Of a stretch of DNA of 5,307 nt, positions 1,194 to 4,818 are shown in pieces. The notes below the pieces were generated by a model. The model was not told the DNA's origin. It did no database searches and saw nothing but the letters and a program-made list of their open reading frames with translations. The translations under genes and the position numbers were made by a program. Position 1 is the first letter of the stretch, and every line of letters starts with the position of its first letter. The stretch is from a virus (lineage: Duplodnaviria > Heunggongvirae > Uroviricota > Caudoviricetes). Where the stretch lies: the IMG/VR virus record IMGVR_UViG_2778261689_000010. One strand, written 5' to 3'.

Positions 1194-1487
1194 ATGAAAA
1201 AAATGCTACTCGCTACTGCGCTGGCCCTGCTTATTACAGGATGTGCTCAACAGACATTTACTGTTCAAAACAAACAGACAGCAGTAGCACCAAAGGAAAC
1301 CATCACCCATCATTTCTTCGTTTCTGGAATTGGGCAGAAGAAAACTGTCGATGCAGCTAAAATTTGTGGCGGCGCAGAAAATGTTGTTAAAACAGAAACC
1401 CAGCAAACATTCGTAAATGGATTGCTCGGTTTTATTACTTTAGGCATTTATACTCCGCTGGAAGCGCGTGTGTATTGCTCAAAATAA
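1194..1487 (+). CDS. bor: Bor outer-membrane lipoprotein (lambda Bor / Iss family, serum-resistance moron), 97 aa
   Basis: Near-identical to lambda Bor over its full length (MKKMLLATALALLITGCAQQTF...ARVYCS). Signal peptide plus lipobox LITGC. Convergent with Rz, as in lambda. Confidence 0.92.
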   Translation: MKKMLLATALALLITGCAQQTFTVQNKQTAVAPKETITHHFFVSGIGQKKTVDAAKICGGAENVVKTETQQTFVNGLLGFITLGIYTPLEARVYCSK

Positions 1488-2685: not shown

Positions 2686-2720
2686 TCAAAAAATGGAAAA
2701 ACCCGCTCGACGGCGGGTTT
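2686..2720 (-). terminator. Candidate intrinsic terminator on the minus strand (possible tR' of the late operon), 124 nt upstream of the holin start
   Basis: Minus-strand reading: AAACCCGC-cgtcga-GCGGGTTT followed by TTCCATTTTTT. The GC-rich core stem is only 5-6 bp, so strength is uncertain. No comparable T-tract on the plus strand. Confidence 0.45.
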
Positions 2721-2725
2721 AAGCT

Positions 2726-3147
2726 GTGTGACGAAGTAACCACTCTTAACAGCATAACCAATTTTTTACGTACGTAAACCACTAAATGATATTTGAGAGA
2801 ATGCTACCGAGTATTGAAAACACCACTACAAATACATAAGCAAATCTCAACAAATAACCAAAAAATAATTTCCAGTGTTATTTTTAGCCGGTTTAAATTG
2901 AACCTTCAAATTATAGAGCACTTATAAATAACAGCCGTTAATATAAATTGGCTAATAGATTTATTTTTATTCAGCCAAGAGCCATGAATAGGATTCGATA
3001 GAAAAAAGTTCAGATAAAAATAGAGATCTACTTCACAAATCAAACGAGAAACCAAAACTTACATCTTGAAATAATCACATTGATTAGATGAATATTTATC
3101 GCGCAGTGACATCATTTTTTAATAATAGTTCAAAAAAAGGGCTCACG
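2726..3147. promoter_or_regulatory. AT-rich divergent control region between holin (minus) and porin (plus); must contain the porin promoter and may contain the Q-dependent late promoter pR'
   Basis: About 420 bp of strongly AT-rich non-coding DNA with many -10-like hexamers, for example a perfect TATAAT on the minus strand (revcomp of 2910-2915) and TTGAAA at 3066-3071 on the plus strand. No -35/-10 pair with good spacing could be fixed by eye. Confidence 0.4.
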
Positions 3148-4245
3148 ATGAAAAAATTAACAGTGGCAATTTCTGCTGTAGCTGCATCAGTACTAATGGC
3201 GATGTCTGCTCAGGCAGCTGAAATTTATAATAAAGACAGTAACAAGCTGGATCTGTACGGGAAAGTTAATGCTAAGCACTACTTCTCCTCTAATGATGCA
3301 GATGATGGTGATACTACTTATGCCCGTCTTGGCTTCAAAGGTGAAACCCAAATCAACGATCAACTGACTGGTTTCGGTCAGTGGGAATATGAATTCAAAG
3401 GCAACCGCGCTGAATCTCAAGGTTCCTCCAAAGATAAAACCCGTCTTGCCTTCGCTGGCCTGAAATTCGGTGACTACGGCTCCATCGATTACGGCCGTAA
3501 CTACGGTGTAGCATACGACATCGGTGCGTGGACTGACGTCCTGCCAGAATTCGGTGGTGACACTTGGACTCAAACCGACGTGTTCATGACTCAACGTGCA
3601 ACTGGTGTTGCAACCTATCGTAACAACGACTTCTTTGGTCTGGTTGATGGTCTGAACTTTGCTGCTCAGTACCAAGGCAAAAACGATCGTAGCGATTTCG
3701 ATAACTACACTGAAGGTAACGGTGATGGCTTCGGTTTCTCTGCTACCTATGAATACGAAGGATTCGGTATCGGTGCAACTTATGCGAAATCTGATCGTAC
3801 CGACACTCAAGTTAATGCAGGGAAAGTTCTTCCTGAAGTATTTGCTTCCGGTAAAAATGCAGAAGTTTGGGCCGCAGGTCTGAAATATGACGCTAACAAC
3901 ATTTACCTGGCCACTACCTATTCTGAAACCCAGAATATGACTGTATTTGCTGATCACTTCGTTGCTAATAAAGCCCAAAACTTCGAAGCTGTTGCACAAT
4001 ATCAGTTCGATTTCGGTCTGCGTCCGTCCGTTGCTTACCTGCAATCTAAAGGTAAGGATCTTGGAGTATGGGGCGATCAGGACTTAGTCAAATATGTTGA
4101 TGTAGGTGCAACCTATTACTTCAACAAAAATATGTCTACTTTCGTTGATTACAAAATCAACCTGCTTGACAAAAATGACTTCACTAAAGCACTCGGTGTA
4201 AGCACTGATGACATCGTTGCTGTAGGTCTGGTTTACCAGTTCTAA
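3148..4245 (+). CDS. nmpC: General diffusion porin of the OmpC/OmpF family, prophage-encoded (NmpC / Lc / OmpD-like), 365 aa precursor
   Basis: ATG at 3148 with AAAAGG Shine-Dalgarno region. Signal peptide [23 protein letters not shown], with cleavage before AEIYNKD. Porin hallmark L3-loop motif PEFGGD. Alternating beta-strand pattern and C-terminal ...VYQF with terminal Phe. Uninterrupted reading frame to TAA at 4243-4245. The ORF-track start at 3088 is an unsupported in-frame extension. Confidence 0.93.
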
Positions 4246-4261
4246 TCTGATTACGAAAAAG

Positions 4262-4295
4262 ATATGTTGCGGGAGGCGTTGCCTCCCCAACATAT
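4262..4295. other. Long imperfect stem-loop (about 14 bp with one bulge, 5-nt loop) just 3' of the porin stop; possible minus-strand intrinsic terminator
   Basis: ATATGTTG(C)GGGAGG-cgttg-CCTCCCCAACATAT. On the minus strand the hairpin is followed by CTTTTT (revcomp of 4256-4261). On the plus strand it is followed by AAGTGGC, with no U-tract. Confidence 0.35.
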
Positions 4296-4383
4296 AAGTG
4301 GCTCCCTCAAGCCACTTCCTTTAGAAGCACAACCTTGCTTCTAACTATATAAACCTTCTGTTATATATTACCCTTTATTTTTG

Positions 4384-4410
4384 GGGGCGTCTCAACGCCC
4401 CATTTTTAAT
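4384..4410 (+). terminator. Rho-independent terminator on the plus strand (porin transcript)
   Basis: GGGGCGT-ctca-ACGCCCC: 7-bp GC-rich stem (4384-4390 / 4395-4401) followed by ATTTTTAATAATTTTT. The minus-strand reading has an A-rich tail, so it is unidirectional. Confidence 0.7.
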
Positions 4411-4434
4411 AATTTTTAGTAAACAATTGGCATA

Positions 4435-4818
4435 TTAATTAGAGTTATTAACAACGATATCCATCTCTAACCGGATATCTAATGCCATTAACATCCCTTC
4501 AATTATGCCCTCAGCCTTCTGTAACCTTTTCCCGATATAACCATCAGAGCAGCAATGCTTACCTGCCAGTGACATGAATGTCATACCGACTACATAATAA
4601 TCTACTAATAAATCGTGCAAATCGCTGTTGTTCTTTTTCAGACGGGCCATGCACCCGCAAATGATCATCGCGTCATCGTCACAACATTGCGGGCGAGATT
4701 TTACTTTTGAAGTAATTAATCCCTTAAAACCGGCGGCAATGGACGACCAGGTCACATCTTCATGATTATTAGCCGCCCACGCTCCCCAACGCTCAAGAAC
4801 CATCTGAATATCACGCAT
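4435..4818 (-). CDS. quuD: Late-gene antiterminator Q (phage 21/82-type, QuuD-like), 127 aa
   Basis: ATG at 4818-4816 preceded by GGAG Shine-Dalgarno (GGAGTAAGTTGATG). The ORF-track start at 4833 is a TTG with no Shine-Dalgarno. Cys-rich putative zinc-binding motifs ([19 protein letters not shown]). Stop TAA at 4437-4435. Gene order rusA-ylcG-Q is typical of this prophage family. Confidence 0.85.

Follow-up and report, generated by a model that had tools for sequence, protein, structure and literature searches.

What is the dense cluster of stem-loops doing in the short gap between two convergent genes of a lambdoid prophage, a porin gene and the antiterminator gene Q? The window analysed here, a stretch of 5,307 nucleotides of Caudoviricetes DNA (IMG/VR record IMGVR_UViG_2778261689_000010), is identified from its ORF list as the junction within the late region of a lambdoid prophage of the DLP12/PA-2 type, in reverse orientation, and the interval in question, 4246-4434, is the exact spacer between the stop codons of the two convergent genes. 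An initial annotation had described four consecutive hairpins there and had taken the apparent terminators of the two genes to be interleaved and not shared. The genes of the window are these:

1194-1487, plus strand: bor, from the ORF list.
Minus strand, with S at 2575-2360: Rz/Rz1, R and the phage-21-type holin gene S, from the ORF list, S belonging to the P21 holin family by Pfam.
3148-4245, plus strand: an intact porin gene of the nmpC/lc type, with its stop codon at 4243-4245, from the ORF list (Pfam Porin_1, E 4.7e-157).
4435-4818, minus strand: the antiterminator gene Q (QuuD), convergent with the porin gene (Pfam PF06530, Phage_antitermQ, E 3.5e-53).
Minus strand: rusA, from the ORF list.

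Homologues of the porin gene are annotated nmpC in K-12, lc in PA-2 and porin in phage 434B; IS5 splits the K-12 and 434B copies 58 bp before the stop codon (window 4187/4188), and the gene is whole here, so that the window is not K-12 DNA itself despite its identical spacer. The Q protein matches solved Q21 structures and belongs to the Q21 family, its gene being annotated quuD in K-12. A tRNA and tmRNA scan found none. A 69-aa ORF at 4084-4293 on the minus strand, antisense to the 3' end of the porin gene and starting inside hairpin 1, carries the label 'ORF1' or 'hypothetical protein' in the sequence records of PA-2 and 434B; with no Pfam match and an antisense position in the porin gene, it is probably spurious and was treated as such.

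The interval is, with high probability, the already described ipeX locus, the structured 3' UTR that ends the message of a prophage porin gene, known as nmpC in DLP12 and as lc in PA-2. The RNA was reportedly described by Castillo-Keller, Vuong and Misra in 2006. Reviews present IpeX as a 167-nt RNA of the cryptic prophage DLP12 that is made from the porin promoter within the porin transcript and then processed, and that lowers OmpC and also OmpF, this repression having been reported both in multicopy and in PA-2 lysogens. At the sequence level, K-12 MG1655, other K-12 strains and phage 434B, into which DLP12 DNA has been taken up, match 281 bp in and around the interval at 100% identity, and the lc sequence of PA-2 (J02580) does so over 273 bp. 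The K-12 record (NC_000913.3) has the interval between nmpC fragment 2 (ends 574529) and quuD (ends 574339), and in the PA-2 record it comes directly after lc.

4246-4407, plus strand: IpeX RNA, the porin 3' UTR (identity, published description, Term-seq 3' end and fold).

The tail measures 162-163 nt when counted from the stop codon up to 4407/4408, where its 3' end maps, compared with the 167 nt published. It thus shares with the ipeX of DLP12 and PA-2 its sequence, without any difference, its strand, its neighbours, its place after the nmpC/lc stop codon and about the same length, whereas the porin gene in front of it is intact here and interrupted by IS5 in K-12. IpeX is also detectable as an accumulating RNA in K-12 transcriptomes. 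Because the NC_000913.3 feature table has no ipeX feature at these coordinates, and because a search of the whole window against Rfam 15 at E<=1 returns no family, the equation with ipeX is based on the identical sequence, its position, and the length and description given in the literature; the missing RefSeq entry and Rfam family may also be why readers and annotation pipelines would miss IpeX. The locus itself is not new, and its value in this respect is that a real regulatory RNA could be recovered from hairpin density alone.

An inverted-repeat search recovered all four hairpins where the initial annotation had put them, and together with the fold it added a fifth that had been overlooked:

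4262-4295, both strands: hairpin 1, with an outer stem 4262-4272/4285-4295 and an inner stem 4271-4277/4281-4287.
4296-4317, plus strand: hairpin 2, 8 bp with the loop CCCUCA at 4304-4309, a structural module of IpeX.
4321-4344, plus strand: hairpin 3, 9 bp, a structural module of IpeX.
4346-4352/4361-4367, plus strand: hairpin 5, an A/U-only 7-bp stem with the 8-nt loop ACCUUCUG at 4353-4360.

Hairpin 1 is imperfect, as had been described, but its stem comprises 15 bp and a single bulged C (4270) where about 14 bp had been counted, and hairpin 2 is perfect on the plus strand over 8 bp (4296-4303/4310-4317), one more than the 7 bp first given. The perfect 9 bp of hairpin 3 (4321-4329/4336-4344) and the perfect 7 bp of hairpin 4 (4384-4390/4395-4401) were found exactly as described. 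Hairpins 2 and 3, for which the initial annotation saw no obvious role as terminators, both lie within the published IpeX.

Folding of both strands gave energies far better than those of shuffled sequence. On the porin strand, the RNA 4246-4412 has a minimum free energy (MFE) of -62.9 kcal/mol, compared with -30.4 +/- 3.2 for its shuffles (z -10.1, reached by 0 of 200), and the Q strand of the interval folds with z -5.9. The individual hairpins 1-4 also exceed their own dinucleotide shuffles, with z of -7.4, -6.2, -5.6 and -3.4 on the plus strand and -6.1, -4.9, -4.7 and -3.5 on the minus strand; hairpin 1 is stable in either direction (-23.3 kcal/mol on plus, -21.3 on minus), and hairpin 4 folds at -13.9 kcal/mol. 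The loop of hairpin 2 is complementary to UGAGGG, a motif that forms the ompF Shine-Dalgarno sequence and also occurs in the ompC leader; a match of 6 nt is expected by chance.

The two U-tracts that had been read as marking opposite directions of termination are indeed confined to one strand each: ATTTTTAATAATTTTT, which includes AUUUUU, follows hairpin 4 on the plus strand only, and CUUUUUCG, running from 4261 down to 4254, lies beside hairpin 1 on the minus strand only.

4384-4407, plus strand: intrinsic terminator of the porin/IpeX transcript, hairpin 4 and its U-tract (terminator scan, fold and Term-seq).
4254-4261, minus strand: the U-tract CUUUUUCG beside hairpin 1, a candidate Q-strand terminator (sequence read and fold).

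Published 3' ends bear on the first of these directly. K-12 minus-strand 3' ends reported by Adams et al. 2021 (eLife 10:e62438, supplementary file 1) were converted by the relation window = 578774 - K-12 coordinate, which was verified against the 61-mers printed in the table. The ends at K-12 574367/574366(-) correspond to window 4407/4408, at the end of the AUUUUU 3' of hairpin 4 (eLife 10:e62438), and hairpin 4 is also listed by the terminator scan; it is the working terminator of the porin/IpeX transcript, as its anatomy had suggested. A further 3' end at K-12 574476(-) falls at window 4298, three nucleotides past hairpin 1 (eLife 10:e62438). Because the plus strand has no U-tract there and the end lies 3 nt beyond a stem of -23 kcal/mol, we read it as exonuclease-protected or processed, probably where hairpin 1 shields porin message that has been cleaved or trimmed by an exonuclease. 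The same study places a Rho-dependent termination region at K-12 574331(-), window ~4443, just inside Q in the antisense direction (eLife 10:e62438, file 2), which would be a back-up stop for porin-strand read-through beyond the IpeX terminator.

On the other strand, hairpin 1 followed by CUUUUUCG probably fits an intrinsic terminator for unmodified transcripts leaving Q, and we regard it as a candidate. It is missing on the minus strand from the terminator scan list, probably because the tool disallows bulged stems. The K-12 Term-seq tables show no Q-strand 3' end near hairpin 1, and are uninformative on this point since the cultures were not grown to induce Q. If hairpin 1 does terminate Q-strand transcription as well, the two transcription units overlap over ~4254-4407 (about 150 bp) and do not end at one common terminator, the interleaved arrangement originally proposed.

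How IpeX acts has been called unknown in the literature since 2006, and reviews state that it lacks complementarity to ompC or that its action does not involve base pairing. We compared IpeX with the K-12 ompC and ompF leaders by windowed and segment duplex analyses, which replaced full-length RNAduplex runs of IpeX against its targets after these had returned meaningless whole-molecule duplexes.

4348-4380, plus strand: candidate seed, complementary to ompC mRNA -31..-3 (duplex prediction and shuffles).

Within this segment, 4352-4366 (AACCUUCUGUUAUAU) pairs with ompC -21..-7 (AUAUAACAGAGGGUU) over 15 contiguous positions, 14 of them Watson-Crick and one G.U, covering the Shine-Dalgarno sequence; a contiguous run of 15 bp was reached by 5 of 1000 dinucleotide shuffles. 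Beyond a 5x1 internal loop, 4372-4379 (CCUUUAUU) pairs with ompC -30..-23 (AAUAAAGG) over another 8 bp. The duplex of the IpeX segment with ompC has an energy of -26.7 kcal/mol, compared with -22.5 for the 5' end of MicC on the same leader, at opening costs of 4.7 and 5.9 kcal/mol, and this value was reached by none of 2000 shuffles of either partner (z -5.5 and -5.2). The pairing region is also the most accessible part of IpeX, formed by the hairpin 5 loop, with a mean paired probability of 0.11, and by the U-rich linker ahead of the terminator. Pairing with the ompF leader was not above chance (-16.0, z -0.65), and the phage porin's own leader, used as a control, paired weakly (-10.0).

These predictions would make IpeX a conventional antisense regulator, in which 4348-4380 pairs with ompC -31..-3 across the MicC site and the Shine-Dalgarno sequence, the duplex being long enough to function without Hfq. 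We hold this model tentatively, at somewhat under even chances: it conflicts with the reviews, which deny complementarity to ompC, and the primary authors may already have tested and excluded pairing. One source describes IpeX as Hfq-independent for at least one target and another has Hfq needed for at least some targets; pairing that is extensive with ompC but poor with ompF would be consistent with these differing accounts of the need for Hfq. The closest parallel is MicC, a chromosomal antisense sRNA that blocks ompC translation, since IpeX is predicted to bind the stretch of the ompC leader that MicC binds and contains both MicC seed blocks, GUUAUAU and CCUUUAUU, in unchanged order, while also covering the Shine-Dalgarno sequence. 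Beyond these two blocks IpeX has no homology to MicC, which is a free-standing gene, whereas IpeX is the 3' UTR product of a phage gene and its pairing is a prediction. If the model is true, it overturns the textbook view that IpeX and ompC lack complementarity and makes the phage RNA a convergent mimic of the MicC seed. If anything here adds to the literature, it is this complementarity, which offers a simple, testable mechanism.

In the mapped and published part of the scheme, transcription starts at the porin promoter, runs through the porin gene and hairpins 1-3 and stops at hairpin 4 and its U-tract. The tail accumulates as IpeX and, as published, reduces OmpC and OmpF synthesis, so that a lysogen swaps host porins for the phage porin. 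Hairpins 1-3 may serve as stability or processing modules, and the weakly structured 4346-4383, made up of the A/U hairpin loop and the U-rich linker, may be the working part, which would pair with the ompC ribosome-binding region at -31..-3 over 23-27 bp and block translation like MicC, the predicted pairing with ompF being much weaker. On the opposite strand, hairpin 1 and CUUUUUCG would halt transcripts from Q before they entered the porin gene in antisense.

Enterobacterial sRNAs derived from 3' UTRs include CpxQ and SroC. Like these, IpeX shares the terminator of the upstream mRNA, is released from that mRNA and carries a U-rich stretch and a terminator hairpin at its 3' end; unlike them, it is longer, has four extra hairpins and has a reported Hfq-independent effect on at least one target.

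The element was found in 2510 of 5426 complete E. coli genomes, with a median of one copy and a maximum of three per genome, always beside the porin gene and quuD. This constant setting, usually once per genome, excludes a dispersed repeat of the REP/BIME or MITE kind. The element is therefore present in nearly half of complete E. coli genomes, where OmpC levels affect antibiotic entry and phage adsorption.

Variation was assessed in 120 copies from IMG/VR, GTDB genomes, RefSeq E. coli and phages, representing 28 distinct variants that are 89-100% identical. Compensatory double changes were found for none of the hairpins among the 28 variants; covariation support is absent because all of the variants are at least 89% identical, and the structure is compatible with the variation but unproven by covariation. 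Polymorphisms in hairpin 1 fall in the loop (4278) and at the bulge (4270, deleted twice), and those in hairpin 4 only at the loop positions 4391-4394. The stem of hairpin 2 is intact in 25 of the 28 variants and has single changes in the other three, and in hairpin 3 the common A4325G retains the pair as G.U while loop position 4331 varies. The CUUUUUCG U-tract (4254-4261, minus strand) is altered in three of the 28, and further recurrent polymorphisms lie in the spacer past the terminator. Overall, variable columns were not significantly fewer in stems than at unpaired positions (Fisher p = 0.10). A helix that closes the MFE fold, 4254-4259/4378-4383, was considered as a conserved feature and rejected, as it is broken in divergent variants.

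At 14 loci the porin is 85-88% identical to that of the window and IpeX is 96-100% identical, so that the tail is much better conserved than its gene. This points to a mosaic porin, to selection acting on the tail, or to a tail that was kept when porin alleles were exchanged. It is this pattern, with IpeX kept at 98.8-100% identity behind porin alleles that differ by ~15%, together with the significant match to the ompC ribosome-binding region, the detection of the RNA in K-12 transcriptomes and the publication of the same sequence as an RNA that represses both host porins in multicopy as well as in lysogens of PA-2, that makes it improbable that the hairpins are transcription punctuation only, two interleaved terminators plus incidental structure with no functional RNA product, even though hairpins 4 and 1 have terminator anatomy and covariation provides no evidence for functional structure.

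If both terminators work, their overlap would also allow an antisense relationship, in which the 3' tail of lytic Q transcripts, extending to hairpin 1 and fully complementary to IpeX, removes IpeX, or the reverse. Such an arrangement would link porin control to the lysis-lysogeny state, and the good folding of the minus strand is in keeping with it. We nevertheless treat it as speculation and consider it very unlikely, because the K-12 Term-seq data, from cultures not grown to induce Q, document no Q-strand end or antisense RNA here, and an N-modified polymerase would ignore hairpin 1.

Returning to IpeX as the tail of the porin transcript, its relation to late transcription depends on where the late promoter lies. 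A search with the spacer between the porin gene and S showed that the minus-strand sequence 2779-2697 corresponds to what directly follows Q in many Stx phages, the Q proteins of which are 78-81% identical to QuuD.

2697-2778, minus strand: late-promoter segment pR' (homology to VT2-Sakai, conservation after Q and terminator scan).

In VT2-Sakai, to which the segment aligns at 80% identity, the annotated features are a 'putative late promoter', a 'putative Q-utilization' and a 'possible rho-independent terminator'. On the minus strand the segment contains the promoter elements TTTACG (-35, 2778-2773) and TATGCT (-10, 2756-2751), a leader that is conserved, and a terminator hairpin with a U-tract (2720-2699), which the terminator scan lists as well; the K-12 Term-seq tables have no 3' end at this pR' terminator.

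A scan of species-representative genomes yielded 30 loci with QuuD-type Q genes. The promoter-leader block lies 30-50 bp past the Q stop codon in porin-less E. coli, Shigella flexneri, Trabulsiella, Pantoea, Citrobacter, Xenorhabdus and Providencia, and only DLP12-type loci carry further DNA between Q and this block, namely ipeX in reverse complement, the porin gene and 368 bp from upstream of the porin. Homology with the Q genes of porin-less loci ends ~20-25 nt before the Q stop codon, which means that the cassette spans ~2780 to ~4458. Judged by these alignments, the porin-ipeX cassette is a reverse-oriented insert between Q and pR'.

Like the lambdoid morons bor, lom and stx, the porin cassette is a cargo gene inside the late region with its own promoter and terminator. 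In contrast to stx, which lies downstream of pR'/tR' and is Q-dependent, the porin cassette is reverse-oriented between Q and pR' and late transcription never crosses it. This corrects the map: because the cassette lies between Q and the late promoter, porin-IpeX would be expressed independently of late transcription, unlike stx.

IpeX also resembles the leader RNAs of pR', namely StxS of Stx phages, which is a processed product of a 258-nt pR' transcript, and 6S RNA of lambda, as all are short, structured, located beside Q and ended by intrinsic terminators; IpeX differs in being on the opposite strand and in starting at the porin promoter, with the pR' homologue located at 2778-2697. This resemblance had prompted the alternative that the interval, lying directly downstream of Q as in lambda and with a Q-strand U-tract on hairpin 1, is itself pR'-qut-tR', with hairpin 1 as tR' and the porin a downstream moron like stx, a reading that is refuted and retains next to no probability, because a promoter scan finds no sigma-70-like promoter on either strand of 4246-4434, nothing there resembles the porin-less relatives, in which the late segment begins shortly past Q, and the homologue of the VT2-Sakai late promoter, qut and terminator sits on the other side of the porin gene. 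In phage PhiR40_1 a different reverse-strand ORF (990-1436 of the sequence examined) occupies the same insertion site as the porin-ipeX cassette, which suggests a recurrent insertion point for cargo.
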